Positions 5,811 to 29,117 of a stretch of 61,836 nt of DNA are shown here, in pieces. A program made the translations under genes and the position numbers. Below the pieces are notes generated by a model. The model saw only the letters and a list, made by a program, of their open reading frames with translations, searched no databases and was not told the DNA's origin. The DNA is from Candidatus Ryanbacteria bacterium. GTDB lineage: Bacteria; Patescibacteriota; Minisyncoccia; Ryanbacterales; GWA2-47-10b. The stretch covers positions 1-61,836 of the forward strand of contig SICQ01000001.1 of the NCBI GenBank assembly GCA_009691385.1, written 5' to 3'. Each line of letters begins with the position of its first letter. The first letter of the stretch is position 1.

Positions 5811-5818
5811 ATTCAGTC

Positions 5819-6661
5819 ATGCGATTACTCAGGTTTTTATTTATAGAATTTATATACAACGGCCATATGCAATCTTTGGGGGTCGCTTCTATTGTGTATG
5901 GTGCATCAAAATTATTTTTTTGGCAGCCCATTTTGTATCCCATTTTTGCTTCCTATCTACTCTTTCAGTTAGTTTATATTTTTGATCGTTACCACGATCT
6001 TAATGATGACTATTCTACTAATAAAACACGATCAGAGCATCTTTTAAGCTATGCTCAATATATCCCCATCATTTTTCTTATATATTTAATAGCACTTGTA
6101 GTTATACTTTGGCAGACTAGCCAAGTTCAAGGAATAATTTTTACCTTCTTCATCCTTTTCATGGGCATATTATATCCTATATTTTTTAAAAATCTTACAC
6201 GACATATTTTTCTTTTTAAAAATCTTTACGTATCATCAGTTTTCGGTCTCATGGCACTTTATGGAAATATTTATTTTTATATAGCACCAATTTCATATTC
6301 ATTTGCTATATTTGTCTTCCTTTATATCTTTCTTGAGACTATGATCATGCAATTTATGCTGGATTGCAAAGATACGGTAGTAGACGGATTAAAGAGTTTA
6401 AAGACGCTCCCAGTTAGATTTGGCGTAGAAAGAGCGGTAGCTATTATTTATGTTATTATTTTTATAAAAGCAACACTATATATTTTTCTAGCATATTCTA
6501 ATCTTACAGAAGGATTGCCCCAGTTTATCTACCTCATTGGCGCTACGACCCTTATCAATCTTGTAGCTATATATTTAATTGCCAAGAATAATTCAGTTGG
6601 TTATTTATTGAGTGCGGGGAAATTTCTTTTATGGAGTATAATTTTTAGTATTAAGATATAG
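5819..6661 (+). CDS. UbiA-superfamily prenyltransferase
   Basis: About 8-9 TM helices. Asp-rich motifs DRYHDLNDD and DCKDTVVDGLKSLKTLPVRFG (DxxDxxxD...TLP..fG). Very AT-rich (the line 6181-6240 is 20% GC). Confidence 0.8.
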   Translation: MRLLRFLFIEFIYNGHMQSLGVASIVYGASKLFFWQPILYPIFASYLLFQLVYIFDRYHDLNDDYSTNKTRSEHLLSYAQYIPIIFLIYLIALVVILWQTSQVQGIIFTFFILFMGILYPIFFKNLTRHIFLFKNLYVSSVFGLMALYGNIYFYIAPISYSFAIFVFLYIFLETMIMQFMLDCKDTVVDGLKSLKTLPVRFGVERAVAIIYVIIFIKATLYIFLAYSNLTEGLPQFIYLIGATTLINLVAIYLIAKNNSVGYLLSAGKFLLWSIIFSIKI

Positions 6662-6684
6662 TTTTAATATTCTTTACAGTTTTT

Positions 6685-8343
6685 ATGTTTGATTTTTTAA
6701 AAACGATAGGGGATTTAACTACGGTAAATCTCCCGTTATGGCATAAAATCACGATTATTGTGGTAAATGCCCTTACACTCGCTTTAGTTGCAACCGTACT
6801 TAATCATAATTCAATAAAGAAACGCATCACCCAGCTATTTCTTGGTTTGGGGGTTTTCATGTTTCTTTGGGTTGATTTTGCTTACTTCGCAAGACTTGTG
6901 GGATCTTCCAATACGGAAGTTTCTCTACTCTTCTTAAGGATCGCGTGGACTGCTACTCCGCTCTTTTTCTGCTTCGTATATTTAACAACCATATATATTG
7001 TTGAGCGCAAACAACGTGATGTTTTTGTATACGGGGTCATCTCTCTTGCCTTTACTCTTGCTTTGGTGACTTGGTTCACAAATTATATTGTTGCCGGCGT
7101 AAGCTTCGTTGGTATCAATCTAGATATCGATTATGGAAAAGGTTTCTTTGGATTTTTATTTGGAATTTTAATAATTATGTGTGCAACACTTTTTCCATTA
7201 GTCCAGGGTGGAAAAAATGTTCGATTGAAACGGAACACATCCATATTTCTTGGAGGAGTAAGCATTTTTTATGTCAACAATCTTATATTTAATATTACCC
7301 TACCGGCTGTTTTTAATATTACGCATCTTTATTTTTTTGGTGATTACTCACTTCTTATCGTTATAGCAGTTACTGCCTATCTGATTTTACAGAAAGGATT
7401 TTTGGATATAAGGGTATTTTCCGCGGAATTATTTGTTTTTGCCTTGTGGGCCTTTATTTTATTAAGAATGACAATCGCGACCAACAACCAAGAGCGCCTT
7501 ATCAGTCTTGGGATGCTTGGCGCTGCAATTACGATAGGATTATTTCTGCTTAGGAGCATAGATAAAGAAGTTGAGTTGCGGAAAAAAATAGAATTACTCG
7601 CTGCTGATCTTGAAGTCGCCAATGCTGATCTCAAACGGCTTGATGAGGCCAAGTCTGACTTTATCTCAATCGCATCACATCAGCTGCGCACGCCACTCTC
7701 GATCATCAAGGGATATATCTCCATGATGCGCGAGGGCACCTACGGTAAACTTGAGACAAAGATTCATGATCCTTTGGAAAAAGTGTATGTATCAAACGAA
7801 CGCTTGATCACCTTGGTCAATGATTTGCTCGACCTCTCACGCATGGAGCGTGGACGCATGCAGTTTGATATGAAGCCCGTGCATCTATTAGAGATTCTTG
7901 ACCCCATCGTCACTGATTTTCAGATCGTGGCAAAAAATAAAAAGATGGAACTTGTGTGGGAAAAAGATTTTAAGACCGATGCGATGAGCGGTGATGTAAA
8001 CAAACTCCGCCAAGTAGCCCTCAACCTTGTAGATAATGCATTTAAATATACACCGTCGGGAAAGGTGGTAGTGAAGCTCGCACAAGAAGGCGATGCTATC
8101 AGATTTTCGGTCACTGACACAGGGCCGGGTTTGAGTGAGGAAGAATCGCGCAAGCTTTTCAAAAAATTTGTCCGCGGCAAAGAACAAAAGGCGACTCATA
8201 CCGAAGGCCTTGGCCTCGGGCTCTATGTAGCCAAACTCATCGCTGAAGCCCATGGTGGCTCCATCGGCGCCACCTCACCAGGCAAAGGCAAAGGCAGTAC
8301 TTTCTTTATGCTGCTACCGCTTGAAGCAGAGAAAAAGAAATAA
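6685..8343 (+). CDS. sensor histidine kinase with a multi-pass membrane N-terminal domain
   Basis: About 7-8 N-terminal TM helices, then a coiled coil. H-box SDFISIASHQLRTPLS, N-box LVDNAFKYT, G-boxes DTGPGL and GLGLGLYV. Confidence 0.9.
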   Translation: MFDFLKTIGDLTTVNLPLWHKITIIVVNALTLALVATVLNHNSIKKRITQLFLGLGVFMFLWVDFAYFARLVGSSNTEVSLLFLRIAWTATPLFFCFVYLTTIYIVERKQRDVFVYGVISLAFTLALVTWFTNYIVAGVSFVGINLDIDYGKGFFGFLFGILIIMCATLFPLVQGGKNVRLKRNTSIFLGGVSIFYVNNLIFNITLPAVFNITHLYFFGDYSLLIVIAVTAYLILQKGFLDIRVFSAELFVFALWAFILLRMTIATNNQERLISLGMLGAAITIGLFLLRSIDKEVELRKKIELLAADLEVANADLKRLDEAKSDFISIASHQLRTPLSIIKGYISMMREGTYGKLETKIHDPLEKVYVSNERLITLVNDLLDLSRMERGRMQFDMKPVHLLEILDPIVTDFQIVAKNKKMELVWEKDFKTDAMSGDVNKLRQVALNLVDNAFKYTPSGKVVVKLAQEGDAIRFSVTDTGPGLSEEESRKLFKKFVRGKEQKATHTEGLGLGLYVAKLIAEAHGGSIGATSPGKGKGSTFFMLLPLEAEKKK

Positions 8344-8524: not shown

Positions 8525-11500
8525 ATGAGTACACGATTGTTCATGAGATGGGGTTTGGTCGGTATCGTTGCTGCAGCCATGTTGGCGCCGCAACTTGCAT
8601 TGGCGGGTACCCCACGCCTTCAACTTAATAAATATAATTTTAACACTGGCGAAAGTGTCACACTTACGGTTACGGGCGCGGACGCAAATGCTGATGTGAT
8701 TGTGGTCTCATCAGACGCATCGGGTAGTTATTCAAACCCAGAGATGACGCTTGATCGTACTGATGCGAGTGGCCGATGGACATCTCCCGGGTATCCGATC
8801 ACACGAGATTTTCGTTCGAGCTGTGATTATGAAACATATGTCATGGTTAATGGCAAACAAAGTAACAAAGAAAGTTACTGCGTCACGCGCACGACAGAAA
8901 ATCCATCAGGCGTTCATGGGTATGTCGTAGAGACACAAAACTCATTTCAATATATTGAAACAACAGTCGAGATTGATGGAACCAAACGCGTATCTACATC
9001 GGGTGGATTTTATGAAACGCGCGACCTCGAACCAGGACGACACACCATCACCGTACAAACTCCACACTTCACTACGGAGCAAAGAGCTACTAACCCCGAA
9101 TATAATATATGTAGCGGAGGCGCCGACTGTGGTAGAAATTCTGGTGGATGGAGTAGCGGTGATACCGCAAGCTTCAATGTGACTGAAGGAAATATTGCGA
9201 CCGTATATTTTCGATTTCTTGTCACTAATCACAATGGAATTCCCACGCCTCCCGGCGGCACTGAACCTGAACCATGCAATGCGACCCATGGCTCATGTTC
9301 GGCAGGTCAGATAAATACTTATCGTTGTAGAAACGCAGTCAACTATCAGAAGTGTGAAAGAAAAGATGCTAACAATGATGGTTTTGCTATCTACTGTTGG
9401 AATGCACCAAATCAATGTCCTGCAAATGCGTCTATCTGCACTGGCAGTGCGGGTAATAGTATCACTGATGACCCGAACAACCCCCACGACATCCCTGTGT
9501 GCACTAACGCTCTCCAAGGCCCCACACCATCTACTATCTATTCAGTGGGTGGACAAGTTGAGGTGACAGAAAATGGTGTCAATGTACGCAGTGCGCCAGC
9601 GGGCGGTATAGCGGGTACTCGCAACGCGGGAGCTCAAGGTACTATTGCTGCAAGTCCTGCAATCCCCGCAAGGCTTGACGGCGTGTGGCATCAATGGTGG
9701 AAAGTAAACTTTAGCAATTTAACAGGTTGGGTGACAGAAGGATTTTTGCGACCTGCAGGTAGTAGCGCTGGCAACTATGTAGACGCCGGTAATAATGTTT
9801 CGGGCACTTTCCCAAGTGGCGCCAGCAAGCTCTACAGCTATCTCAATGCGTCAGTGTATGTAAATGGTGCAAAGCGTGATGACATCCAAAACAATGGCTT
9901 TGTCATGTGGAGGGTAACTTCCAAAGATGGTGCTGCGTGTGGTGCTGACAATTGTGGCGTAGTCTTTGAACCAATACCAAACGGTAACCAAGCTCAAGAC
10001 CCAACCGCGGTATTTTCTAGCAAAGGAAGCTACCAGCTTCAGTTTTGCGCACCATTTATATTGCCGTGTGACACGATCACCGCTGACATTCGCCAAGGAG
10101 GTACTATCGACTGTGATCAGGACGTACAACAGAGGTATCTTGCTAGATGGTGTCCACCCGGCTTTAATCCTACTAGGGTATCATGGGGTACCAGCGGAGC
10201 TTTCCCTAGCAACCCATCGGGTCCCTATCACGCGTGCAATATCCGCAACCTTCCCGTTGGTGGTATCAACGCTGGCGGATGCAGTGGTAAATACAGTTGG
10301 CCCAATGGCGGTGATGATACTACAGCACGCACACCATCAACGCCTACCTTTAATGATGGAGCTGATGCATACGGCTATGCTCACATTGTAGCTGAGGCAT
10401 GGAATTCAAACTGGACACGCGCACTCAATCTCAATGGCATCCCGACACGATCAGGCCAATGGAATATTGCGGCGCGCTATATGGCACACGGTGTTAGGCA
10501 AGACGGCCCATATAAATGGCTGGGTATCCCCCCCGCGTATGCTGATTTTTTCCCAGAATCACACGCGAGTACCTATGTATCACCCGAAGCATTAGCATCA
10601 GGCCCCGGTCAGCTCCCGCTCTGCATGCAAGACTATAGTGTAAACGCTCAAGTATATGGTTATGCAAAAGGTTGGTGGGGTTTGCCGAGTGGTATGAACC
10701 CTGATGGCGCGCGTCCTGGTCGTCGTATACCACAAACTGGTAAATGCGTACCTGACTGGAGACATTGGCGAGCCAACATCAATCCAATCCCTCAATACAC
10801 CGGAGGCCCCGGCCCAAGCGCTGTAAGTGGTAATTGTGGAGGTCCTACCAGTACTGCTGATGAAGTAGTATGTGGATCCGCAGAAGATCAGTTTTACTGC
10901 ACCGCAAATAAAACAAGAGCCGCTATCGGCGAGGCAGTCACCTTTACTGCGTTTGGCGCAACACCACTCGAGTGGAACGCAAATATCGGTGCAACACCAC
11001 GCCAACAATCTGCCGGGCAATCGTTTACCACTACATGGAATTCAGTAAGCGGTTCAATGAACCAAACTGTGAGCTTTACGCATCGTACTGATGGTAGCGT
11101 CCAATCCGAAAGCTGTAGCGTATTGCTCTATGATCCAAATCCAGCGCCTCCTCCACCGCCACCAGCGCCCGTAGGTCCTCTGAATTGTTCGGGCGGTGAC
11201 GCGTCAGCAGGTACTGTGGCGGGCACGGTAACTCTCCGCGCGTTTGATGTGACCGGCGGTAGCTCAATGTCATTTGGTGTCTACCCCGTACGCAATGGTG
11301 TCCGTCAATACGAGCTTGCCAAGTGGCCGGGTGGCGTGCGTGTAGGTGCTTCAAATACTTTCCGCGGCACGCTAACAGCAGCACAACTCTCCGATGGAAA
11401 CTTTGGCAATGGCCGCTACGGTGTCAATATTTGGCTCTGGGGTAGGCCTGACGATGCGACTGATGACAGACGGTGTGCTACATATGATTTTGTAAAATCA

Positions 11501-12877
11501 GGCGATACTATTACGATTCCTACGCCGGACTTGCCCCCACCTCCTCCGCCAGCCGTAACACCTCCACCACCTCCTGTCGCGCCACCCCCACCAGCAGGGC
11601 CGTTGCCACCACCGTCATGTACTTTGACGCCGACTCCTGGTGGTACCTCAAAAGCAATCAACACTAGATTTGGCGTGACATGGGCCGCTACCAATGCTGA
11701 TTATATTTCAGTCGCAGGCCCCGGTTGGAGTGGCACAATTGATTGCGGACTTCATGATGACAACGGCGATGGTATAGGTGACCGGTTTGATCCAGTGTAT
11801 GCTACTCCGTATTCATGTCGCGCGGCATTCTTGCGTACTGCAAGCGGTGGTGGATATGATCTTGGTACGCAGGGCACGTGGGGCAACCTCTACATGCGTG
11901 AAGCAGGTAGCGCCAATGTAACTGCAACACCAAAACGCTATGACGGCGCTAGTGGCGCACCATGTGCGCTTACTATCACCACATCAGGAGGCGGCCCAAC
12001 CCCTCCACCTCCGCCTCCGCCGCCGGCTCCCACAGCACCTCGCTGTCGCCTCAATGGAACCCTTGGCAATTCGTCTGTTACAAAAACCGTAGGTGATCGA
12101 TTTGAAGTCCCTTGGGCATGGGAAAACGCTGATTATATCACCGTCTCAACTCCATGGGCTGGAACGGTTGATTGTGGCAAACGTGCTGATGGCACCTTTG
12201 ATCCAAATTACTTCCCGTACCCGTACAAGTGTTTTAGAGATTTCATGTCCTCTCCAACTCCGTACGATCTTCGTTCAACGGGGCAGTGGGGCAATCTCTA
12301 TATGCGTGAAGCGGGTACCGCGCGCGTAACCATCACACCAAAGCGCAATGACGGGACTACGGGCGCATCATGTACTCTCACCATTACTGGCACTGGTACT
12401 CTCGTAGCGCCACCCCCACCACCCGTAGCGCCTCCGCCGCCTCCAGCGGCAGCGCAAGCACCAACATATTATAACCATGAATGTTCGGTCACTAGCGTCA
12501 CACAGCTCGGTGGTGGTCGCGTCAAATTACGCGTCGTAGGCGGTACGGCATTGCCTGATTCTGTTGGTTTCTGGAATCTCTCACGGGGCGTCGGCACTGC
12601 TACATGGGTTGGTCGTGGAGTATGGACCACTATCAACTCAACTACCTATGATGTGACATTGAGTGCGGTAGATCACGCGAACACCTACGGCAGATATCAG
12701 GCAAGTTTCTGGAAGTGGGGTACAAGTGATGCGACAAATATCCTGTGCTCGGAAGCACAGTTTGATATCCCACGCCCTACTGCTGCTACAAGCGGTAGCG
12801 ATGTGAGCGCTCTTGCGGATACTCTGCAAGGCCTTCGCAGCATGCTATTGGGCTTACAGTCAGCTCTCGGGCAATAA
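8525..12877 (+). CDS. giant secreted modular protein (1450 aa) rich in Cys, Trp and Pro, with an SH3b-like domain and poly-proline linkers
   Basis: Signal peptide ...VAAAMLAPQLALAG. SH3b-like segment VNVRSAPAGG...WWKVNF..LTGWVTEGFL (about 9539-9752). Four poly-Pro linkers and duplicated modules. No membrane anchor or sortase motif seen at the C-terminus. Confidence 0.85.
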   Translation: MSTRLFMRWGLVGIVAAAMLAPQLALAGTPRLQLNKYNFNTGESVTLTVTGADANADVIVVSSDASGSYSNPEMTLDRTDASGRWTSPGYPITRDFRSSCDYETYVMVNGKQSNKESYCVTRTTENPSGVHGYVVETQNSFQYIETTVEIDGTKRVSTSGGFYETRDLEPGRHTITVQTPHFTTEQRATNPEYNICSGGADCGRNSGGWSSGDTASFNVTEGNIATVYFRFLVTNHNGIPTPPGGTEPEPCNATHGSCSAGQINTYRCRNAVNYQKCERKDANNDGFAIYCWNAPNQCPANASICTGSAGNSITDDPNNPHDIPVCTNALQGPTPSTIYSVGGQVEVTENGVNVRSAPAGGIAGTRNAGAQGTIAASPAIPARLDGVWHQWWKVNFSNLTGWVTEGFLRPAGSSAGNYVDAGNNVSGTFPSGASKLYSYLNASVYVNGAKRDDIQNNGFVMWRVTSKDGAACGADNCGVVFEPIPNGNQAQDPTAVFSSKGSYQLQFCAPFILPCDTITADIRQGGTIDCDQDVQQRYLARWCPPGFNPTRVSWGTSGAFPSNPSGPYHACNIRNLPVGGINAGGCSGKYSWPNGGDDTTARTPSTPTFNDGADAYGYAHIVAEAWNSNWTRALNLNGIPTRSGQWNIAARYMAHGVRQDGPYKWLGIPPAYADFFPESHASTYVSPEALASGPGQLPLCMQDYSVNAQVYGYAKGWWGLPSGMNPDGARPGRRIPQTGKCVPDWRHWRANINPIPQYTGGPGPSAVSGNCGGPTSTADEVVCGSAEDQFYCTANKTRAAIGEAVTFTAFGATPLEWNANIGATPRQQSAGQSFTTTWNSVSGSMNQTVSFTHRTDGSVQSESCSVLLYDPNPAPPPPPPAPVGPLNCSGGDASAGTVAGTVTLRAFDVTGGSSMSFGVYPVRNGVRQYELAKWPGGVRVGASNTFRGTLTAAQLSDGNFGNGRYGVNIWLWGRPDDATDDRRCATYDFVKSGDTITIPTPDLPPPPPPAVTPPPPPVAPPPPAGPLPPPSCTLTPTPGGTSKAINTRFGVTWAATNADYISVAGPGWSGTIDCGLHDDNGDGIGDRFDPVYATPYSCRAAFLRTASGGGYDLGTQGTWGNLYMREAGSANVTATPKRYDGASGAPCALTITTSGGGPTPPPPPPPPAPTAPRCRLNGTLGNSSVTKTVGDRFEVPWAWENADYITVSTPWAGTVDCGKRADGTFDPNYFPYPYKCFRDFMSSPTPYDLRSTGQWGNLYMREAGTARVTITPKRNDGTTGASCTLTITGTGTLVAPPPPPVAPPPPPAAAQAPTYYNHECSVTSVTQLGGGRVKLRVVGGTALPDSVGFWNLSRGVGTATWVGRGVWTTINSTTYDVTLSAVDHANTYGRYQASFWKWGTSDATNILCSEAQFDIPRPTAATSGSDVSALADTLQGLRSMLLGLQSALGQ
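11180..11518 (+). repeat. module B, copy 1 (in-frame protein repeat)
   Basis: LNCSGG...NGRYGVNIWLWGRPDDATDDRRCATYDF shares the GRY..W.WG..DAT...C...FD core with copy 2. Bounded by poly-Pro linkers 11138-11179 and 11519-11614. Confidence 0.6.
11615..11995 (+). repeat. module A, copy 1 (in-frame protein repeat)
   Basis: SCTLTPTPGG...NADYISV...DCG...WGNLYMREAGSANVTATPKRYDGASGAPCALTIT aligns along its length with copy 2. Confidence 0.8.
12041..12409 (+). repeat. module A, copy 2 (in-frame protein repeat)
   Basis: RCRLNGTLGN...NADYITV...DCG...WGNLYMREAGTARVTITPKRNDGTTGASCTLTIT. Bounded by poly-Pro linkers 11996-12040 and 12410-12445. Confidence 0.8.
12467..12772 (+). repeat. module B, copy 2 (in-frame protein repeat)
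   Basis: YYNHECSV...YGRYQASFWKWGTSDATNILCSEAQFDIP is distantly related to copy 1. Confidence 0.6.
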
Positions 12878-20470: not shown

Positions 20471-21561
20471 CCAAACATGCTGATAAAATATTGCTGGGTG
20501 TGATCGCGTTTTTACTGATAGTAGGCATGATCACTTTTGCGTCAGCATCAGCGCCACGATCAGTACGCAACTATGGCAATTCGTATTCGCAGTTTTTACG
20601 CCAACTTGTTCAAGGACTTGGGCTCGGAGGTCTTTTTTTTATGTTGGGTCTACGCGCGCCTGTTGTAATCTGGAAAAAATGGGCGCCCCTCATGCTCATA
20701 GGAAGTTTACTCATCATGCTTGCTATGCTCACGATACCGAGTATCAGCTTGACGGTAGGTGGCGCAACCCGTTGGATTGTTCTTTTTGGTGTTTCATTTC
20801 AGCCGTCCGAACTACTCAAGTTTGCATTTATCGCGTATCTCGCGGCATGGATTCATTCGCGCAAACGCGAAATCGGCAGTTTTACTTTTGGTCTCCTGCC
20901 GTTTCTTGCCATCACGGGTATCATAGGAGCTTTTTTACTTTTAGAACCTGACCTTGGTACCTTCGGTGTTATCGCGTGTACATCGCTCGGTATGTTTGTC
21001 ATGGGAGGTGGGCATATGAAGCAAGTGGGTATTATCATTTTGCTTGGCTTACTGTTTTTGATAGGTATGAGTATTTTGGAACCATATCGTATAAATCGCT
21101 GGCTCGTATTTCTCGATCCAAATACCGATCCGCAGGGCATCGGCTATCAGATCAACCAAGCGCGTCTTGCGATAGGCTCGGGCGGGCTGTGGGGTAGGGG
21201 AGTTGGCCTTTCGCGACAAAAGTTTTATCTACCGGAACCTGATGGTGACGCGGTCTTTGCAGTGTTCGCCGAAGAGTACGGATTTATAGGGGTCATCATA
21301 CTCATCGGCGCCTTTTTTCTCTTCGCCGTTCGTGGTATGATGGCGGCAGCACATACGCGCGATTCCTTTACCCAGCTTCTAGCTTCTGGCATTACGCTCC
21401 TAGTTGTGACGCAAGCAATCATCAATACCGCGGCGCTCTCGGGACTCTTGCCGCTGACCGGCATTCCCTTGCCATTTATGAGTTTGGGTGGCACGGCGGT
21501 AGCATTTCTCCTTTTTGAAATGGGTGTGCTCGTACAAATCTCAAAACGCAAACATATATGA
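20467..21561 (+). CDS. ftsW: SEDS-family peptidoglycan glycosyltransferase (FtsW/RodA)
   Basis: About 10-TM SEDS profile (PSELLKF, PEPDGDAVFAVFAEEYGFIG, LPFMSLGGTA). It sits in the murD-ftsW-murG position. ATGA overlaps on both sides. Confidence 0.85.
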   Translation: MTKHADKILLGVIAFLLIVGMITFASASAPRSVRNYGNSYSQFLRQLVQGLGLGGLFFMLGLRAPVVIWKKWAPLMLIGSLLIMLAMLTIPSISLTVGGATRWIVLFGVSFQPSELLKFAFIAYLAAWIHSRKREIGSFTFGLLPFLAITGIIGAFLLLEPDLGTFGVIACTSLGMFVMGGGHMKQVGIIILLGLLFLIGMSILEPYRINRWLVFLDPNTDPQGIGYQINQARLAIGSGGLWGRGVGLSRQKFYLPEPDGDAVFAVFAEEYGFIGVIILIGAFFLFAVRGMMAAAHTRDSFTQLLASGITLLVVTQAIINTAALSGLLPLTGIPLPFMSLGGTAVAFLLFEMGVLVQISKRKHI

Positions 21562-22682
21562 AAATAGTACTCTTGGGCGGAGGTACCGGTGGACATTTTT
21601 ATCCTCTCATGGCTGTCGCCCGTTCACTCCGCGACATCGCAGAAGAAGAACGGATCGTATCACTTGACCTCGTGCTCATGGGTGACAAACCCTTTGACCC
21701 TGAGGTGATGCGTGAAGAATCAGTCTCATTTGAGATGATACCCGCGGGGAAGATGCGCCGTTATTTTTCACTGCTCAATTTTTCTGACAGCATCAAAACC
21801 TTGCGTGGCGTTTTTCGCGCGCTTTGGAAGTTCACCACTCATCCGCCTGATATTATTTTTTCAAAAGGTGGCTATGATGCGTTCCCGGTACTCGTTGCCG
21901 CGCGCCTCTATCGTATACCCGTCATGATTCACGAGTCAGACGCGATACCGGGCGCGGTCAATACTTGGGCTGCCAAATTCGCCCGCCGCATTGGTGTATC
22001 ATTTCCAGAGGCAGCAAAACATTTCCCGCCTGATAAAGTGGCGCTCTTGGGCAACCCTATACGCCCCGGCATTTTGGGTGGCTCGTCAGACGAAGCGTAT
22101 GATATTTTCAATCTAGAGACGGGCGTGCCTATCGTGCTTATCTTGGGTGGATCACAGGGTGCACAAAAGATAAATGATCTTATACTTTCAACGCTTTCCG
22201 AGATGGTAGAAAAGTTTCAGATTATCCATTCAACGGGTGTGGCAAACCACGACATGGTCGCCAAAGAAGCCGAAGTAGCGCTGGGTGATTCACCCCACAA
22301 ATCGCGCTATCATCATTTCCCCCTCATGACTGCGAGCCAGTTACGCAACGCCGCGTTTGTATCCAATGTAGCGGTATCGCGCGCGGGCGCGGGTGGAATC
22401 TTTGAGCTTGCTGCGTGGCATTTGCCGGCGATTCTCGTACCCATCACTGATTCCGCGCAAAATCATCAGCGCGAAAACGCCTACAACTACGCGCGCACGG
22501 GAGCTGCTATCGTTGTAGAAGAATCAAACCTCACGCCTCATGTTCTGATATCAGAAATACAAAAAATCATCACTGATACAGCGCGCGCCGCAGAGATGCG
22601 TCAGGCGGCAGGCACCTTTGCTCGTATTGATGCGTCACGCAAGATTGCCCACGAGCTTATTCGCCTCGGTGTCCATGAATAA
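21558..22682 (+). CDS. murG: undecaprenyldiphospho-muramoylpentapeptide beta-N-acetylglucosaminyltransferase
   Basis: GGGTGGHFYP glycine loop and HQRENA near the C-terminus. dcw context. Confidence 0.9.
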   Translation: MKIVLLGGGTGGHFYPLMAVARSLRDIAEEERIVSLDLVLMGDKPFDPEVMREESVSFEMIPAGKMRRYFSLLNFSDSIKTLRGVFRALWKFTTHPPDIIFSKGGYDAFPVLVAARLYRIPVMIHESDAIPGAVNTWAAKFARRIGVSFPEAAKHFPPDKVALLGNPIRPGILGGSSDEAYDIFNLETGVPIVLILGGSQGAQKINDLILSTLSEMVEKFQIIHSTGVANHDMVAKEAEVALGDSPHKSRYHHFPLMTASQLRNAAFVSNVAVSRAGAGGIFELAAWHLPAILVPITDSAQNHQRENAYNYARTGAAIVVEESNLTPHVLISEIQKIITDTARAAEMRQAAGTFARIDASRKIAHELIRLGVHE

Positions 22683-24051
22683 ACCTGTACGCGTACGCAT
22701 CGCGCCATCTCCTACCGGCTTTATGCATATCGGTACGGCTCGCACCGCGCTTTTCAATTTTATCTTTGCCAAACAACACGGTGGTACTTTTTTACTACGC
22801 ATTGAAAACACCGATAAAGAACGCTCAAAAAAAGAATTTGAAGACGATATCATACAAGGCCTTGCGTGGCTCGGGCTTGATCATAGTGAATTTCACCGGC
22901 AATCTGAATATTTACCGACTCATGCAAAATATCTAGAATCACTCCTTGCTGACGGCAAAGCATTTTGGTGCACGCATACTACCGAAGAACTTGAAGCTGA
23001 AGGTGAGCATCAACGCGAAGCCAAAGAACCCCCGCGCCATATTTGCGAGCATCGCGACACGGACAAAACTTCGGGCATCGTGCGCCTACGCAACGACGAG
23101 CGCGCATCCATCGTTATCCATGATATGATCCGCGGCGATATTATCTATGACCCACAACTGTTTGGCGATATTTCTTTGGCGAAAAATCTTGCCGAACCTC
23201 TCTATAATTTTGTCGTGACTGTTGATGATCATGAGATGAATATCTCGCATGTCATCAGAGGTGAAGACCACATCACCAACACACCAAAGCAAATTCTCAT
23301 TGGTCGCGCGCTTGGCTTTACTGAACCCGAGTGGGCACACTTGCCACTACTACTTGCCAAAGATCGCACCAAACTTTCAAAGCGCAATGGCGCGGTGTCA
23401 GTAGGGGAGTATCAAAAAAATGGCTATATCCGTGAAGCGATCATTAACTTTATCGCGTTTTTAGGATGGCACCCCAAAGATGAAGTAGGTGAAGTTTTAG
23501 ATCTTGAAACTATTATTAAAGTATTTGATATCACGCGCGCGCAACGTGGCGGAGCCGTCGTTGATACCGAAAAGCTTGATTGGCTCAACCGTGAACACAT
23601 CAAGCGTTTGGCCCCTGAAGAAAAAATCAATCGTGCCGAACCCTTTATAAACCCTGCTACCAAAGAAAAACTCGGCTCGCGCGTAGCCCAATATATACTG
23701 GCGGTACTCCCGCGGGTCACCAAGCTCACCGAGATAGACGCGATGATCAATGATCTATTGGAGATACCGCCGTACGACGCTGAACTTCTTTTATGGAAAG
23801 GTAAACTTGATCGGGCAAAAGTAAAAGAGACTCTCAGTGCCATTCTCTCGATACTAAAAAATCCTGATACCGCCGAACAAGATTTCAAGCCGCTGATAGA
23901 AAAAGAAGGCAACGGCGCAGTACTCTGGCCACTTCGTACCGCACTCTCAGGGCGCGCCATATCACCCGGACCTTATGAACTCTTAAGCGCTTTTGGGCTT
24001 GATGTAGCCGAGAGGCGCATACAAAATGCTATCAGCAAACTCGATGCGTAG
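22675..24051 (+). CDS. gltX: glutamyl-tRNA synthetase
   Basis: RVRIAPSPTGFMHIGTARTALFN (HIGH) and KLSKRNG (KMSKS). The ATG at 22675 overlaps the murG stop by 8 nt. The ORF extension to 22618 is rejected. Confidence 0.9.
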   Translation: MNKPVRVRIAPSPTGFMHIGTARTALFNFIFAKQHGGTFLLRIENTDKERSKKEFEDDIIQGLAWLGLDHSEFHRQSEYLPTHAKYLESLLADGKAFWCTHTTEELEAEGEHQREAKEPPRHICEHRDTDKTSGIVRLRNDERASIVIHDMIRGDIIYDPQLFGDISLAKNLAEPLYNFVVTVDDHEMNISHVIRGEDHITNTPKQILIGRALGFTEPEWAHLPLLLAKDRTKLSKRNGAVSVGEYQKNGYIREAIINFIAFLGWHPKDEVGEVLDLETIIKVFDITRAQRGGAVVDTEKLDWLNREHIKRLAPEEKINRAEPFINPATKEKLGSRVAQYILAVLPRVTKLTEIDAMINDLLEIPPYDAELLLWKGKLDRAKVKETLSAILSILKNPDTAEQDFKPLIEKEGNGAVLWPLRTALSGRAISPGPYELLSAFGLDVAERRIQNAISKLDA

Positions 24052-25294
24052 ATTGCATCGCCTTGCTATCATCTCCGCGCTTGCTCTTGCTGTTTTTCCG
24101 TTTATTGCTGGATCTGCTTCCGTCGATGAATTACGCCAAAAAATATCTGGCAGCGAATCCGAGATAAAAAAGCTTGAAGCCGAGATCGCCCAATATCAAG
24201 ATGCACTTGATAAACAGTCAAACCAATCACAAACACTGAAAGGTGAGATTAAAAAACTTGAAACCCAGATAAAGAAGATGAACACCGATATCAAGCTCAC
24301 CGAGCAACAAATACAGCGCACCGAACTACGCCTCGAGGAGCTTGATATTGAAATCACCGAAAAGAAATCGGCCCTCGATACTGAAAAAGAAGTACTCGGG
24401 TCACTCGTCAGATCTCTGTACGAAGAAGACGACACCTCAATAATAGAAATATTGGCAGGTTACGGCACGCTGTCTGAATTTTTTGAAAAACGAGAATCGA
24501 CCGAAGCAGTGCAAGAACAGCTCGGGCAAAGCTTGGCATCGTTGCGTAAACACAAAGAAAGCTTAGAGACCGAAGCTGAACGCAAAAAACGCGAAGAAGC
24601 CGAGCTCCTTTCGCGCCGCAAAGATTTGAGCGGCCGCAGGTCAGTACAAGAAACTATCAATCAATCAAAATCAAAACTACTCTCGGAAAGTAAAAACCAA
24701 GAAACTAAATACCAACAGCTTTTGCGCGAACGGGCGGAAAAGCGCGCGCTTATCCAAAAAGAGCTCCAAGCGGTTGAAGATGAATTGCGTAGGTCTATTG
24801 ATCCGTCACTCTTGCCTACCAAGCGTTCGGGTGTGCTGGGCTGGCCTGTAGAAAACCCAAAAGTGACGCAGGGCTTTGGATTCACCGAGTTTGCCACCAC
24901 CCAAGGATCTGATGTGTACAAGGGTAAGGGTCATAACGGTATCGACTTCAAAGCAGCTATAGGAGCCCGTATTTTGGCCTCTGAAGCCGGTATTGTGAAG
25001 GATTTGGGTAATACTGATACCACCTGCCCAGGCGGCTCATATGGCCGATGGGTGATCATCGAGCACCCAAATAACCTCTCGACACTTTATGCACATTTCT
25101 CAGGCATTTCCGTCACCCGCGGCCAGCAAGTAAGTAGGGGAGATCTCATAGGGTTTGGAGGTGATACGGGCTATGTGACGGGCCCGCACCTGCACTTTAC
25201 GGTATACGCCAGCAATACCTATCGGCTTGCCAAGACCAAAAACTGCGGTATGGTACCCGCCGGTGGCTATCTCAACCCACTCGAATACCTCTAG
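24044..25294 (+). CDS. M23 peptidase with N-terminal coiled coil (EnvC-like)
   Basis: Signal or anchor helix, about 220 aa of heptad-rich coiled coil, then an M23 core: GHNGIDF, LYAHFS, GPHLHFTVY. Confidence 0.85.
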   Translation: MRRLHRLAIISALALAVFPFIAGSASVDELRQKISGSESEIKKLEAEIAQYQDALDKQSNQSQTLKGEIKKLETQIKKMNTDIKLTEQQIQRTELRLEELDIEITEKKSALDTEKEVLGSLVRSLYEEDDTSIIEILAGYGTLSEFFEKRESTEAVQEQLGQSLASLRKHKESLETEAERKKREEAELLSRRKDLSGRRSVQETINQSKSKLLSESKNQETKYQQLLRERAEKRALIQKELQAVEDELRRSIDPSLLPTKRSGVLGWPVENPKVTQGFGFTEFATTQGSDVYKGKGHNGIDFKAAIGARILASEAGIVKDLGNTDTTCPGGSYGRWVIIEHPNNLSTLYAHFSGISVTRGQQVSRGDLIGFGGDTGYVTGPHLHFTVYASNTYRLAKTKNCGMVPAGGYLNPLEYL

Positions 25295-25316: not shown

Positions 25317-25568
25317 ATGGATCGTACGAACCGCATCAATCGCGCGACAACACGCTATAGCAAAGGCATTATACAACTTGGTATCATCATCATACTTTCG
25401 GTGGTGATTTTGAGCTTGCTGGGTGTATCACTAAGTTCACTTGTCAACAATAAAACGCTCGCAGAAAATTTTGTATTTTTGTGGGAGGGGATCAAATGGG
25501 TTTGGACAAACTACGCGGGCGCATTCTTTTGGAAAATTTGGGATCTCGTCTCAAATATCTGGAAATAA
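25317..25568 (+). CDS. small membrane protein (83 aa)
   Basis: The ATG at 25317 follows the upstream stop. One clear TM helix IIQLGIIIILSVVILSLLGV and a Trp-rich tail. No family recognised. Confidence 0.5.
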   Translation: MDRTNRINRATTRYSKGIIQLGIIIILSVVILSLLGVSLSSLVNNKTLAENFVFLWEGIKWVWTNYAGAFFWKIWDLVSNIWK

Positions 25569-25953
25569 AAAAGTCCCTTACTTGCATGAGGGCTCCCAAA
25601 TAAATACGAAAATAAGTTTGTAGGCGAATGGTGCAGAGCTTTTCGCAAGCTATTTGTGCGCTCATGAGCTTTGCGCTCGAGTGCTAACATGCGAAAGTAT
25701 GCAATTTTCTAGCCCTTTTTATTGGTCGCTGGGGGAGACCCTCGTGCAAAAAAGGAACCTTCTAGTGTCTATCTACCCCCATCATCAAACCGCCAAAAAC
25801 ACCTTGCAAGCCCTATTTTAACGATTCTTGTGTATTGAATGTTGATAAAATGTTTATAATCAGTTATTAAGAGATTAATAAGACTCTAGACAATGGCAAC
25901 AAATCATAGTATAGCTAAAAATCCTGAGATCATAACGCGCGCGGTCATTAACC

Positions 25954-26520
25954 ATGGCATTTAAAGTTAAGGTAACTTTTATAGATGTATTTAAAATTGG
26001 AGATAATATAAATTATAATCTCCAAATTTTAAAAGTTCTTTATTCTGGATATAAAGACTTGCCAGATGGTCATAAATTAATTAAGCCTATAGTAATAATT
26101 AATACTTCGATAGTCGAAGCTTTATTTTTTGATTTTGTTGTTAATAGGCTAAAAAGGCCTTATCGAACGGAAGTTTTATTTTCTGAAATCTTTGCGGCAC
26201 TTAAAGACAAGAATCTACATAGGTTTGAGAACTACATCAGTCAAGTAGAAAAGCGTGATCTATTTGAGCTAGGTAACACAAATTTTTATGAAATATTACG
26301 CATTTTGAGTAAAAAAAGAAATAGGATACATATACAAAATGAAAAATGGGAAGAACCTCGCGATGAGTCAGATGTGTTTGATAAAGAATCAAAGATTATG
26401 TCTGAAAAAATTCTAGAAAAGACAGTGTATATTCTAGTATCTAAATTTTCAAGGCGGGAAGAGTATCATAGATATGTAAATGATTTTGAATTCCCTTGGG
26501 ATCGGCATTTTAAAGAGTAG
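25954..26520 (+). CDS. hypothetical helical protein, HEPN-like (tentative)
   Basis: 188-aa ORF in a strongly AT-rich patch (the line 26041-26100 is 27% GC). Predicted all-helical. YEILRILSKKRNRIHIQN carries R-N-x-x-H at a helix start, one residue shorter than the canonical HEPN Rx4-6H. Confidence 0.55.
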   Translation: MAFKVKVTFIDVFKIGDNINYNLQILKVLYSGYKDLPDGHKLIKPIVIINTSIVEALFFDFVVNRLKRPYRTEVLFSEIFAALKDKNLHRFENYISQVEKRDLFELGNTNFYEILRILSKKRNRIHIQNEKWEEPRDESDVFDKESKIMSEKILEKTVYILVSKFSRREEYHRYVNDFEFPWDRHFKE

Positions 26521-26524
26521 ATAT

Positions 26525-26560
26525 GAGGTCGCAAAAGCTATGTTGTACGACCTCTTTATA
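26525..26560 (+). terminator. possible terminator hairpin
   Basis: 7-bp stem GAGGTCG/CGACCTC with a large 16-nt loop, followed by TTTATA. Confidence 0.4.
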
Positions 26561-26634
26561 CTCGCAAAAATCACTACCCCGCCGCATCTAAGGATTGATA
26601 TTGGTAAATAAAAAACTTACTTCTATATTATAAA

Positions 26635-27270
26635 ATGCTACGATGGATGGGTATGGAGTTAAAATGGACTACAGAAGCTATAAGAGAAGGATTTGAAAAA
26701 TTTTTCAATGAATACGGACGTTATCCAACCACACCGGAGATTGATCGTTATCAATATCTCCCCTCTTCAAAACAGCTACAAAGAAGGTTTGGGAGTGTCT
26801 CTGTAATTAGAGAGCAGTTAGGATTACCTATTTTAGATTTTACTAAAGGCTCTACTAGATCAAAAACAGCAAAAGATATAGGGAGACGTGGAATATATGA
26901 AGAACAAATGATCTATAAAAAACTCGTAGATCATTTTGGAGAAGTTTTTGTACATAACCAAAAACCCTTCAACAACTATGCGGGTAGATATGATTTCTAT
27001 GTCTACTCAAGAAATAGTAATTTTGCTATAGACGTATTCTACGCAGCAAATTTGAGAAACCTTAGTGGATGCATTAATCTTAAGCAGAAAGTTTATAAAG
27101 ATACCGAGGATAAAATAATCCTATTAAGCACAAATCCTGAGATAAAACAGCATGATATTGATTATGTCTTATATAAGAAAGATAAGACCCTTCCCACTAA
27201 TTTAGTAGTTTATAGTTTGGAAAGTTTTCTAGCCTATATAAAAAGCTCAGAAGTATTACGCATAAAATAA
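26635..27270 (+). CDS. homing-endonuclease-associated repeat fused to a restriction-endonuclease-like (Vsr/DUF559-like) domain
   Basis: The N-terminus WTTEAIREGFEKFFNEYGRYPTTPEIDRYQYLPSSKQLQRRFGSVSVIREQLGL fits the HNH-associated repeat pattern (WT.E...GR.P...FGS...GL). The C-terminus YEEQ...GRYDFYVYSRNSNFAIDVFYA resembles a PD-(D/E)xK-type core. AT-rich. Confidence 0.6.
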   Translation: MLRWMGMELKWTTEAIREGFEKFFNEYGRYPTTPEIDRYQYLPSSKQLQRRFGSVSVIREQLGLPILDFTKGSTRSKTAKDIGRRGIYEEQMIYKKLVDHFGEVFVHNQKPFNNYAGRYDFYVYSRNSNFAIDVFYAANLRNLSGCINLKQKVYKDTEDKIILLSTNPEIKQHDIDYVLYKKDKTLPTNLVVYSLESFLAYIKSSEVLRIK

Positions 27271-27286
27271 TTTCAACACTACTATA

Positions 27287-28459
27287 ATGAGAGTTTCATT
27301 TTCAGCGCTTGAAACATATAATCAGTGCCCGCAGAAATACGAGTACGAGCATATCGAACGCAAACGCGTACCAAAAGGCAAAGAGTCTATTTTTGGTACT
27401 TCTATCCATAGCGCTATGCGCTTTATGTTTTCTCGGGATCCCCTCTTTCCTACACTTGAAGAGGTGTTGGCGCATTTTCGTGAATCATTTGCTGATAGCC
27501 AATCAGTTGCTGATGCTGACAAGGCGCGGTACTTGGAATCTGGCGAGCGCATGATACGGGTATACTATGAAAAAAACCCGCCGTGGAACTTTGATGTGAT
27601 TGATCTGGAATCGCGCTTTGAAGTACCACTCGAAGATCCGAAGACGGGTATCACCCACACCATCGCTGGCAGCATTGATCGCATTGATAAAACCGGTGAA
27701 GGTTTATTTGAAATCATTGATTATAAGACTTCACGCAAACTTCCCGCTCAAGAAACAGTCGATGCCAATATGCAGTTGGCTATCTATCAGCTCGCACTCG
27801 AGAAAAAATGGCCACATATCGATCCTGAACATGTGACCTTAGCACTTTACTTTATGAAAGCGGGCGAAAAACTTGTCACCCGCCGCACGCGCCAAGACCT
27901 TGATAACACACGCGGGCAAATTCTCGATACTATTCATTCGATAGAAAAACGCATCGAGACAAAAGAATTCCCTGCCAAACCAAACGCTCTATGTGACTGG
28001 TGCGGGTACAAGCCCATATGCCCTGCGTGGCGGCATTTGTATAAAGCACAAGAAAAAGACGCCCCACCCGATGATGCCCGGCCGCTGATCAAAGAATACT
28101 TTACCCTCAAACACGAGATCGGCGAGCGTGAAGATAGACTTGACCAGATCACAGCCAGTATTAACGCCTATCTCGATGCGCAAAAACTTGATCGTGTATT
28201 TGGTGAGGGTGGATCACTCGCACGATCACAGCAAGAGCGCACAAGCTGGGATGCAAGCAAGATAACCTCGATACTTGAACCAACAGATTTCTGGCAACAG
28301 ATACTCTCCCCTGATGACAAAAAACTAAAAAAGCTTTTACCAAAATTGCCTACCGACCTTCAAGAACGCTTGCTAGCAGAGGCTCGCATCGTCAAACGCT
28401 TTACCATGCTCAAAGCATCTACCAAAAACGCATTGCCCGAAGAAGAACATGAAGCTTAA
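27287..28459 (+). CDS. PD-(D/E)XK nuclease, Cas4/AddB-type with a four-Cys cluster, plus a ~130-aa C-terminal extension
   Basis: The first Cys is in ALETYNQCPQKYEY. The catalytic core is GSIDRIDKTGEGLFEIIDYKTS. The C-terminal CDWCGYKPIC triad completes the arrangement typical of Fe-S RecB-family or Cas4 nucleases. Confidence 0.8.
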   Translation: MRVSFSALETYNQCPQKYEYEHIERKRVPKGKESIFGTSIHSAMRFMFSRDPLFPTLEEVLAHFRESFADSQSVADADKARYLESGERMIRVYYEKNPPWNFDVIDLESRFEVPLEDPKTGITHTIAGSIDRIDKTGEGLFEIIDYKTSRKLPAQETVDANMQLAIYQLALEKKWPHIDPEHVTLALYFMKAGEKLVTRRTRQDLDNTRGQILDTIHSIEKRIETKEFPAKPNALCDWCGYKPICPAWRHLYKAQEKDAPPDDARPLIKEYFTLKHEIGEREDRLDQITASINAYLDAQKLDRVFGEGGSLARSQQERTSWDASKITSILEPTDFWQQILSPDDKKLKKLLPKLPTDLQERLLAEARIVKRFTMLKASTKNALPEEEHEA

Positions 28460-28467
28460 CATCACTA

Positions 28468-28800
28468 CTATTTACACTGTGCGCTACGACTATAGCCCGC
28501 GCCCTCGGCCTCCAATGCTGAAGCGAAAAAGAGGCGATTTTCATCCTTGATCCGTGAGGCAGATTTGCACGCTTTAGGGTAGTAAACCTTACCGTTCTTG
28601 CTCGCCACAAAGTTCCCCGTACCTTGCCCGTCGAGCCGTATTTCGAACGCATTTGGCACTAGTTTTGGCTCAAATTTGGCCTGCTCTGCCACAGTAAGAC
28701 GCCATAGCCCTACCCCGATGACGACCACCAAAAAGACGCCGAGCCCCCAGAAATATACTTCTATCAAGCCCTTGATCTTTTCGGTAAACTGATGTAGCAT
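28468..28800 (-). CDS. membrane-anchored protein with an Ada-Zn-binding-like ('sunset') domain
   Basis: TM helix VYFWGLGVFLVVVIGVGLW. The C-terminus FVASKNGKVYYPKACKSASRIKDENRLFFASALEAEGAGY resembles the small Ada-like domain. Convergent with the nuclease gene, 8 nt apart. Confidence 0.6.
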   Translation of the reverse strand: MLHQFTEKIKGLIEVYFWGLGVFLVVVIGVGLWRLTVAEQAKFEPKLVPNAFEIRLDGQGTGNFVASKNGKVYYPKACKSASRIKDENRLFFASALEAEGAGYSRSAQCK

Positions 28801-28844: not shown

Positions 28845-29117
28845 ATGGCACATACCAAAGCAGGCGGATCTACAGCAAACCTACGTGACTCAAACCCCCA
28901 ATACCTCGGGGTGAAACTTTTTGGTGGAGAAATTGCGCGAAACGGCGCGATCATCATCCGTCAGCGCGGATCAAAGTTTATGCCCGGCGAAGGAACTCGC
29001 AAAGGCAAGGATGACACTATCTACGCGATTCGTGATGGCAAAGTACTATTTGCTGACAAGCGCAAGCGCCACTTTGATGGTACTACTGTCATGAGAAAAT
29101 TGGTCAGCGTTGTCTAA
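28845..29117 (+). CDS. rpmA: 50S ribosomal protein L27
   Basis: MAHTKAGGSTANLRDSNPQYLGVK...IIRQRGSKF.PG is the L27 signature. Confidence 0.95.
   Translation: MAHTKAGGSTANLRDSNPQYLGVKLFGGEIARNGAIIIRQRGSKFMPGEGTRKGKDDTIYAIRDGKVLFADKRKRHFDGTTVMRKLVSVV

Follow-up and report, generated by a model that had tools for sequence, protein, structure and literature searches.

The stretch of DNA analysed here (hereafter the window) is a contig of 61.8 kb from the genome of a Candidatus Ryanbacteria bacterium (Patescibacteria). Two small AT-rich genes on its forward strand, here called A and B, lie next to each other among genes of normal composition. A first-pass annotation made from the sequence alone had taken them for an imported defence or abortive-infection pair. 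We compared both genes and their neighbourhoods with homologous loci in other genomes, and the comparison suggests that two unrelated genes stand side by side. The features of the region are listed below, with lengths in amino acids (aa) or nucleotides (nt).

21558-22682, 22618-24051 and 24026-25294, forward strand: murG, gltX and an M23 peptidase gene, respectively, a conserved block beside which gene B keeps its place (Pfam in homologous loci, and for M23 in the window; tblastn mapping).
25317-25568, forward strand: small membrane protein, 83 aa from its ATG, found directly 3′ of the M23 gene in relatives.
25569-25953, no strand: non-coding stretch of 385 nt 5′ of gene A, part of the segment missing from relatives that lack A.
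25954-26520, forward strand: gene A, 188 aa, encoding a HEPN-like stand-alone protein whose motif reads LRNRIHIQN (R122, N123, H126), from an AlphaFold2 (AF2) model, Foldseek and alignment.
26525-26554, forward strand: inverted repeat or hairpin 5′ of gene B, with the core GTCGCAAAAGCTATGTTGTACGAC at 26528-26551 (pattern search, covariation).
26635-27270, forward strand: gene B, 211 aa as an open reading frame (ORF), with a predicted N-terminal helical HNH-repeat-like DNA-binding domain and a predicted C-terminal PD-(D/E)xK-like nuclease core (Pfam, AF2, Foldseek).
27287-28459, forward strand: gene C, 390 aa, a Cas4/AddB-type PD-(D/E)XK nuclease with Fe-S cysteines, starting 16 nt past gene B.
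28468-28800, reverse strand: conserved small protein of 110 aa with a weak Ada Zn-binding match (Pfam, E = 5e-4).
28845-29117, forward strand: rpmA (L27), which marks the other end of the syntenic neighbourhood.

Only three genes in the window have a GC content more than two standard deviations (SD) under the mean, and A and B are among them, which bears out the AT-richness described for the pair. The figure of about 27% GC first given for the cassette was too low: positions 25954-27270 have 31.4% GC (A 29.1%, spacer 34.2%, B 33.0%), compared with 47.8% for the window. The two ORFs are separated by a hairpin and a spacer of 114 nt (26521-26634), as had been described. NCBI places the start of gene B at 26647, and the resulting 207 aa are probably its true length. 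Rfam and tRNA searches around the A-B region returned no matches; the 385-nt stretch 5′ of A in particular showed no Rfam or tRNA match and no DNA similarity to other loci.

The two genes hardly ever occur together. Gene A is present in one of 83 other B loci and gene B in one of 59 other A loci, both counts referring to the same locus, L024, of a Parcubacteria genome. The A loci without B include about 15 from Patescibacteria with enough flanking sequence, and the conserved co-occurrence or adjacency expected of a two-gene system was not observed. These counts already largely refute a two-gene module. They also come close to the outcome that the first-pass annotation had itself named as fatal to its proposed defence pair, namely that homologues of A and B never co-localise, L024 being the only other co-occurrence. 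The search against defence-system models that it had recommended was also unfavourable: in PADLOC-DB 2.0.0, zero families match A or B at E ≤ 1, and the downstream gene C alone is recovered (Cas4 models).

Gene A is a mobile, stand-alone accessory gene without a fixed partner, and it belongs to an undescribed family. This family comprises 67 clusters in a word-indexed search and 556 clusters at 50% identity in an exhaustive profile search (E ≤ 1e-3). A genome scan located 53 A loci in Patescibacteria, Saccharibacteria, Eremiobacterota, Planctomycetota, Omnitrophota, Verrucomicrobiota, Bacteroidota and many Proteobacteria, and the gene lies under the GC content of its host in 55 of 55 loci, with a mean difference of 11 points. 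When the 272 proteins that flank A at about 50 loci were clustered by similarity, no cluster exceeded three members and no conserved neighbour was found; nucleotidyltransferases (the MNT antitoxin) are absent from the 25 commonest neighbour families listed. The neighbours include ResIII-type enzymes (L003, L015/L035, L037), Type ISP restriction-modification enzymes (L018 and L148, with a homologue in L013 by clustering), GmrSD together with HNH (L030), Mrr (L045), AbiH (L057), C5 methylases (L047, L053), serine and tyrosine recombinases, and a MobA/TraI relaxase (L059). Frequently, A comes last behind restriction enzymes of various types. Because so many of its neighbours elsewhere belong to restriction, defence or mobile elements, A could plausibly have a defence role on its own. 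Thirteen Rhizobiaceae plasmids carry the gene; in one case its ORF overlaps that of a resolvase adjoining HigA, and on another plasmid it comes after a pair encoding an ATPase and an S8 peptidase. In other Patescibacteria, it merely sits between housekeeping genes, and the phage genome collection yielded no homologue.

The protein family consists of compact single-domain proteins of about 185-200 aa. Gene A itself matched no Pfam, NCBIfam, PADLOC or PHROGs family, and profile searches against PDB sequences gave nothing relevant. Its AF2 model (predicted local distance difference test score, pLDDT, 84.6; predicted template modelling score, pTM, 0.85) is almost wholly helical, and the top Foldseek matches in the PDB are almost all HEPN proteins: YutE (1YLM), the HepT toxins (7AE9, 7BXO, 8XEH, 5YEP) and AF_0298. 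In BFVD, the best meaningful match is annotated "HEPN domain-containing protein" (E = 0.6). These results support, with modest confidence, the all-helical, HEPN-like fold that the first-pass annotation had read from the letters.

The annotation had also pointed to an R-N-x-x-H motif one residue short of the HEPN catalytic motif, within residues 115-129 (LRILSKKRNRIHIQN). This description was exact, and the feature proved to be a property of the whole family. In an alignment of 74 sequences, K44, H126 and R167 are invariant, while conservation reaches at least 90% at R122, N123, I127, Q128, D17, N18, E55, D60, P181 and W182. Of the 74 members, 71 carry RNxxH, in a segment without insertion or deletion, giving a family-wide motif LRNRxHxQ in which R122-N-R-I-H126 has the form Rx3H. 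The segment KLRNRIHIQN of A is the catalytic segment of HepT (GLRNRLVHEY or GLRNIAVHDY) minus one residue; the HepT segments were pulled from the PDB with a DUF86-like consensus, and they served as a motif comparison and not as a test of homology. DUF86/HepT genes were sought in the fetched loci for profile building, and none were found.

Among known systems, A comes closest to the HepT (DUF86) toxins of HepT-MntA (PDB 5YEP, 7AE8, 7BXO; YutE 1YLM), which are its best Foldseek matches and share both the all-helical fold and the Arg-Asn...His motif in a late helix. However, A has one residue fewer between R and H, lacks the trailing Tyr, has no adjacent MNT antitoxin nor any conserved partner, and extends about 70 residues further at the N-terminus, where it bears a conserved FKxGDNIxYN motif. 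The lactococcal proteins AbiV, AbiU2, AbiD/F and AbiJ are single-gene HEPN abortive-infection proteins. Our comparison with them draws on general background and on what Anantharaman et al. (2013, as cited in PMC9122126) reportedly set out. Like A, they are stand-alone, similar in size, strongly AT-rich relative to their hosts, and located on mobile elements or in defence contexts, but the 74 A members gave no HEPN_AbiV, AbiU2 or Abi_2 Pfam match at E ≤ 5 among the families listed. Literature searches on HEPN proteins in Patescibacteria and on the name of the Pfam repeat found in gene B (below) returned nothing specific.

One homologue of A lies at the edge of a P2-like prophage in Marinobacterium stanieri DSM 7027 (L034:9986-15483, the same as L142), flanked by the portal gene, 78 nt away, and by a gene for a host chemotaxis receptor. 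This strain is cultured, and A could be tested there. A defence hotspot of P2-like prophages adjoins the portal gene gpQ, according to a published survey (Rousset et al. 2022, PMC9122126). The Marinobacterium gene is likewise close to the portal gene, but it stands between that gene and the host chemotaxis gene and not between gpA and gpQ. Family A does not appear to be among the families tested in that survey.

Gene B belongs to a family with at least 306 clusters, whose proteins of 205-230 aa are without exception labelled "hypothetical", and every member with a named source comes from the Patescibacteria group or an unclassified bacterium. The protein contains the peptides WTTEAI..., YEEQ, RYDFYVY and AIDVFY, from which a "clear" homing-endonuclease-associated repeat and a nuclease of the Vsr or DUF559 kind had been proposed. 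The repeat is indeed found at the N-terminus, where residues 22-64 align to positions 12-53 of the 54-position Pfam model HNH_repeat (PF18780), but clear it is not, with 21.6 bits (E = 2.8e-4) against a gathering cut-off of 26. A homologue, P0088, bears this annotation in precomputed form. Gene B differs from that family in having a single copy instead of an array, fused to a PD-(D/E)xK domain instead of an HNH domain. No usable NCBIfam, PADLOC or PHROGs match was obtained, nor any in profile searches against PDB sequences.

As for the nuclease, the restriction-endonuclease-like fold was recovered by structure comparison, whereas the families Vsr and DUF559 gave no Pfam match to gene B at E ≤ 1. 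In the AF2 model (pLDDT 85.3), a helical N-terminal domain is joined by a long helix and an alpha/beta core, with helices at 69-97 and 136-150 and strands at 102-104, 117-119, 126-131 and 156-161. This alpha-beta-beta-beta-alpha-beta order is that of the PD-(D/E)xK fold, and the C-terminal half shares its core in Foldseek with the PDB entries of Bax1, PspGI, Can2, BamHI, Ecl18kI, BsaWI, Hjc and Mus81 (probability up to 0.99, E from 4e-3), in the absence of any sequence-level match to a Pfam or PDB family of the fold. Ten residues are at least 95% conserved in 136 homologues (E86, E99, H103, R114, D116, D129, N144, K146, Q168, K178). They include an acidic set like that of these nucleases: E86 lies in the first helix, D116 opens a strand, and D129 belongs to the strand that follows. 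The Lys normally found two residues after D129 is missing (the position is F131), and a conserved Lys is supplied instead by N144-x-K146 on the following helix. Displaced-lysine variants of the PD-(D/E)xK core occur in some restriction enzymes. Unlike type II restriction enzymes, gene B has no methyltransferase partner and is conserved like a housekeeping gene. With modest confidence, then, we consider B a predicted PD-(D/E)xK nuclease-like protein.

Mapping of marker proteins with tblastn onto 83 B loci provided insights into the neighbourhood of this gene. About 30 distinct loci display the recurring order murG, gltX, M23, a variable stretch of 0.2-2.8 kb, an optional Xer-like integrase, B, an optional Cas4-like or RNase T-like exonuclease, a small conserved protein and L27. 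The earlier statement that the cassette has no link to the flanking division operon is therefore wrong for B, which has been kept beside murG-gltX-M23 in these related loci. Homologues of the 110-aa small protein were found by tblastn in 21 B loci, beside L27 where checked. The Xer-like tyrosine recombinase is a 318-aa protein encoded directly 5′ of B and co-directional with it in about 20 loci, at a distance of 14-35 nt (L007-L011, L089, L091, L110, L112, L114, L115 and others). It is 85-89% conserved between genomes with gltX 66-72% identical, and the window contains no homologue of it. In one locus, DinB and LexA lie adjacent. In L068/L069, a Cas4-like gene C follows B after a gap of 3 nt, and in L145 a 137-aa gene stands between B and the Cas4-like gene. 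The context differs between deep clades. In almost every genome, with the window and loci such as L119, L089 and L012 as cases in point, GC content at third codon positions (GC3) is much lower in B than in its neighbours, for example 0.18 against 0.36-0.38.

The identity of B between pairs of genomes tracks that of its flanking genes, with Spearman coefficients of 0.46 and 0.52 against the flanks gltX and M23, compared with 0.42 for the two flanks against each other. Between moderately related genomes, B is 80-88% identical, gltX 54-66% and M23 56-67%. At conserved residues, the codons of B are only 49-69% identical. The high protein identity points to purifying selection and not to recent horizontal transfer, which is ruled out as its cause because the synonymous codons have diverged. 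By these measures, B is an old, vertically inherited and strongly constrained gene resident in the Patescibacteria lineage, since it is conserved at least as well as gltX with diverged synonymous sites. The foreign origin once ascribed to it is countered by this conservation and by its conserved position.

A search of 2.9 million viral contigs gave a single match to B, and 50,697 phage genomes gave none. The match is a distant homologue (34% identity) on a viral contig of 29% GC (L141:7893-10568, IMGVR_UViG_3300032269_001075), where it adjoins a short N-terminal fragment of a terminase large subunit; the same contig encodes an intein-containing SNF2/ResIII helicase.

The element between A and B provided further evidence on which gene it serves. 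The hairpin has the form GAGGTCG-N16-CGACCTC (26525-26554), with a −10-like TATGTT in its loop, and the spacer as a whole reaches a fold z-score of only −1.56. Its palindrome can be written GTCGCAAAAG-N-TAT...CGAC, and in full GTCGYAAAAG-N-TAT-N-TT-NNN-CGAC. The pattern GTCGYAAAAGNTATNTTNNNCGAC occurs once in the window, with 0 occurrences expected. In the fetched loci, including those without A, it was found upstream of B only, 54-148 nt from the start of B where measured. Copies lie at L145:5242-5265, L069:7919-7942, L071:2543-2566, L077:7865-7888, L078:7833-7856 and L070:~914-937, the loop hexamer in the hairpin elements being TATAAT or TATATT, and the element is confined to one subclade of B. 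In the stem, four pairs are invariant and one covaries (CG/UA/GC), with the covariation seen at the outer positions. An intrinsic terminator was considered and rejected: there is no T-run, and the upstream stop codon lies anywhere from 5 to 116 nt away, while the distance to B stays within 54-148 nt. Judged by its distribution, the hairpin belongs to B and not to an A-B pair; possible roles are those of an operator, a promoter or a structured 5′ leader of B.

Relatives of the window also reveal the site without gene A. The closest syntenic relative, L145, has the order murG, gltX, M23, small membrane gene, 88 nt, B, 137-aa gene and Cas4-like gene, with no A. L070 resembles it, also lacking A, with the small membrane gene about 190 nt from B. 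The small membrane protein has no Pfam match; tblastn places its relatives 3′ of M23 in L070, L066, L078/L080 and L100, and a 69-aa gene fills its slot in L145. Because relatives lacking A keep both the hairpin upstream of B and the empty site, gene A and the 385 nt of non-coding DNA upstream of it appear as an insertion between the small membrane-protein gene and the upstream element of B. In L066, the closest relative of B with long flanks, a 272-aa phage-associated protein with a Bro-N domain (7082-7900) occupies the slot of A, suggesting that the gap between the small membrane gene and B is a recurrent insertion site. A direct repeat (25555-25579 and 26598-26622, 19 of 25 matches) was tried as the target-site duplication of the insert; it was rejected because its right copy lies beyond the upstream element of B and the sequence is AT-rich and of low complexity.

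Based on these findings, we postulate that the region is a juxtaposition of unrelated genes, a mobile HEPN-like gene A beside a resident and conserved gene B, and not a two-gene system; we give this reading a probability of roughly 0.68. Gene B would be resident and vertically inherited in a lineage of the Parcubacteria/Paceibacteria type, under strong purifying selection, and its AT-rich codon usage would be a long-standing trait rather than the mark of recent import. It would occupy a recombination- and repair-flavoured neighbourhood between murG-gltX-M23 and rpmA, often directly 3′ of the Xer-like recombinase and, in the subclade of the window, directly 5′ of the Cas4-like exonuclease, with its own conserved upstream inverted repeat. 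Such a protein may be a housekeeping DNA-processing nuclease, specific for structures or sites, that acts in recombination or repair. Gene A, meanwhile, would travel alone across phyla and settle in defence islands and mobile elements, often beside restriction-type nucleases. It may act as a single-gene abortive-infection or toxin-like effector, most likely an RNase working as a dimer like other HEPN proteins, with predicted catalysis by the shortened motif.

Several observations weigh against this reading, and the first of them concern the nature of A. The Rx4-6H spacing that defines the HEPN family is broken by its Rx3H. No HEPN Pfam model matches gene A itself, and a Pfam scan of the 74 members yielded two weak matches to HEPN_RiboL-PSP (best E = 0.015). 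The Foldseek matches are weak as well (probability 0.8-1.0, E 0.04-1, TM score 0.4-0.5 on the query and 0.5-0.68 on the target). Membership of A in the HEPN superfamily is thus not established, since the spacing differs and no HEPN profile matches. Gene A could instead encode a helical protein without catalytic activity (an adaptor, sensor or regulator) that goes with restriction and mobile-element genes and uses its R/H motif for binding. The departure from the HEPN rule in 71 of 74 members, the missing profile match with weak fold matches, and the frequent position as final gene after several types of restriction enzyme would all fit such a protein. Against it, LRNRxHxQ is nearly identical to the HepT catalytic segment GLRNRLVHEY save for one deletion, conservation across phyla is at least 90% for R122 and N123 and complete for H126, and A often stands alone in housekeeping contexts, where an adaptor would be partnerless. 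We regard this explanation as unlikely, though worth keeping in mind.

Other observations concern the arrangement of the two genes. Their adjacency was found twice, in the window and in L024, with A directly 5′ of B in the same orientation both times and a spacer of roughly 120-130 nt in L024, depending on the start codon of B, compared with 114 nt in the window. The two adjacencies apparently arose independently, as judged from trees: the window A falls in the candidate phyla radiation (CPR) clade, the L024 A is closest to sequences of Planctomycetota and Omnitrophota, and neither the A tree nor the B tree pairs the window with L024. In L024 (9502-11438), the 1.5-kb AT-rich A-B block lies beside tRNA-Ser, tRNA-Glu, a large serine recombinase and an XRE-S24 repressor. 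Repeats that derive from the tRNA-Glu 3′ end stand on both sides of the block (18 of 21 and 22 of 31 matches), the 18/21 copy just 3′ of B and further degenerate copies 5′ of A, and the block looks like an island integrated at a tRNA. Taken together, these features are more than chance alone would readily produce. The two adjacencies could equally mean that A docks beside nuclease genes or that B lies in insertion-prone regions, and we hold a functional coupling of A and B to be very doubtful.

A more elaborate view would join the two stories. Gene A would be a new and widespread HEPN single-gene effector with a shortened Rx3H motif, docking beside restriction-type nucleases, B included, as an RNA-targeting back-up for cases in which restriction of DNA fails; gene B would be a near-essential Xer-linked nuclease of Paceibacteria, with an operator-like hairpin, taking part in chromosome recombination or resolution; and their arrangement would reflect functional coupling instead of a shared hotspot. 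Taken whole, this seems to us quite improbable. Little credit goes to the original idea of a two-gene defence, abortive-infection or toxin-antitoxin-like module, with A as RNase-like effector and B as DNase, moving as a cassette. It draws on the two independent adjacencies with their common order, orientation and similar spacers, on the L024 block between tRNA-Glu-derived direct repeats, on the AT-richness of both genes relative to the host, and on the restriction-type nucleases often found beside A elsewhere. However, A is missing from 82 of 83 other B loci and B from 58 of 59 other A loci, relatives without A hold an intact B with the same upstream element, B evolves as a slow-changing vertical gene, neither gene matches PADLOC, and the trees of A and B do not pair the window with L024.

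Two further points against the juxtaposition of a mobile and a resident gene concern B. Its GC3 lies far under that of its neighbours in almost every locus (by 8 points on average for GC), which this reading leaves unexplained, and its "core" status is inferred from B-containing loci alone. A free-standing homing-endonuclease-like selfish gene re-inserting at the same intergenic site would account for the fixed position and the AT-richness, and it would agree with the consistently low GC and GC3, the sub-threshold N-terminal repeat, the distant homologue beside a terminase fragment on a viral contig with an intein-bearing helicase, and the varying context in deep clades, but it is most unlikely given the uniform length of 136 sequences with almost no change at active-site residues, a conservation above that of gltX between related genomes with diverged synonymous sites, an identity that tracks the flanking genes, and one match in 2.9 million viral contigs with none in 50,697 phage genomes.

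A Cas4/AddB-type Fe-S nuclease had been said to follow immediately, and gene C, 16 nt after B, matches Pfam PDDEXK_1 (PF12705) at 5.5e-36 over the full model and Cas_Cas4 at 1.5e-5, together with TIGR00372 cas4 at 7e-14, under the family cut-off. Its translation carries C14 and a C-terminal CX2CX5C, the four Fe-S cysteines of the Cas4/AddB type. No CRISPR or cas neighbours of gene C were seen. Elsewhere in the window, a second low-GC stretch (4773-8343, 31-41%) encodes a polyprenyl synthetase, a UbiA prenyltransferase and a histidine kinase, the UbiA gene (31% GC) being the third compositional outlier. Positions 8525-12877 hold a 1450-aa ORF without a significant Pfam domain.

Under the juxtaposition reading, A is a candidate for an undescribed HEPN-variant defence gene and B a candidate conserved orphan nuclease-like gene. 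If A is active, the HEPN catalytic motif would extend beyond its accepted spacing, and a compact single-gene candidate would be added to the defence repertoire. The 556 clusters of its family are spread over many phyla and include cultured Rhizobium, Marinobacter and Marinobacterium strains suited to testing. Gene B represents an unannotated family of at least 306 clusters that is better conserved than a tRNA synthetase in bacteria of the candidate phyla radiation, and its nuclease-type residues and place beside a Xer recombinase make it a lineage-specific candidate for a missing recombination or repair function in these minimal genomes. An AT-rich pair of small genes amid core genes need not be an imported cassette.

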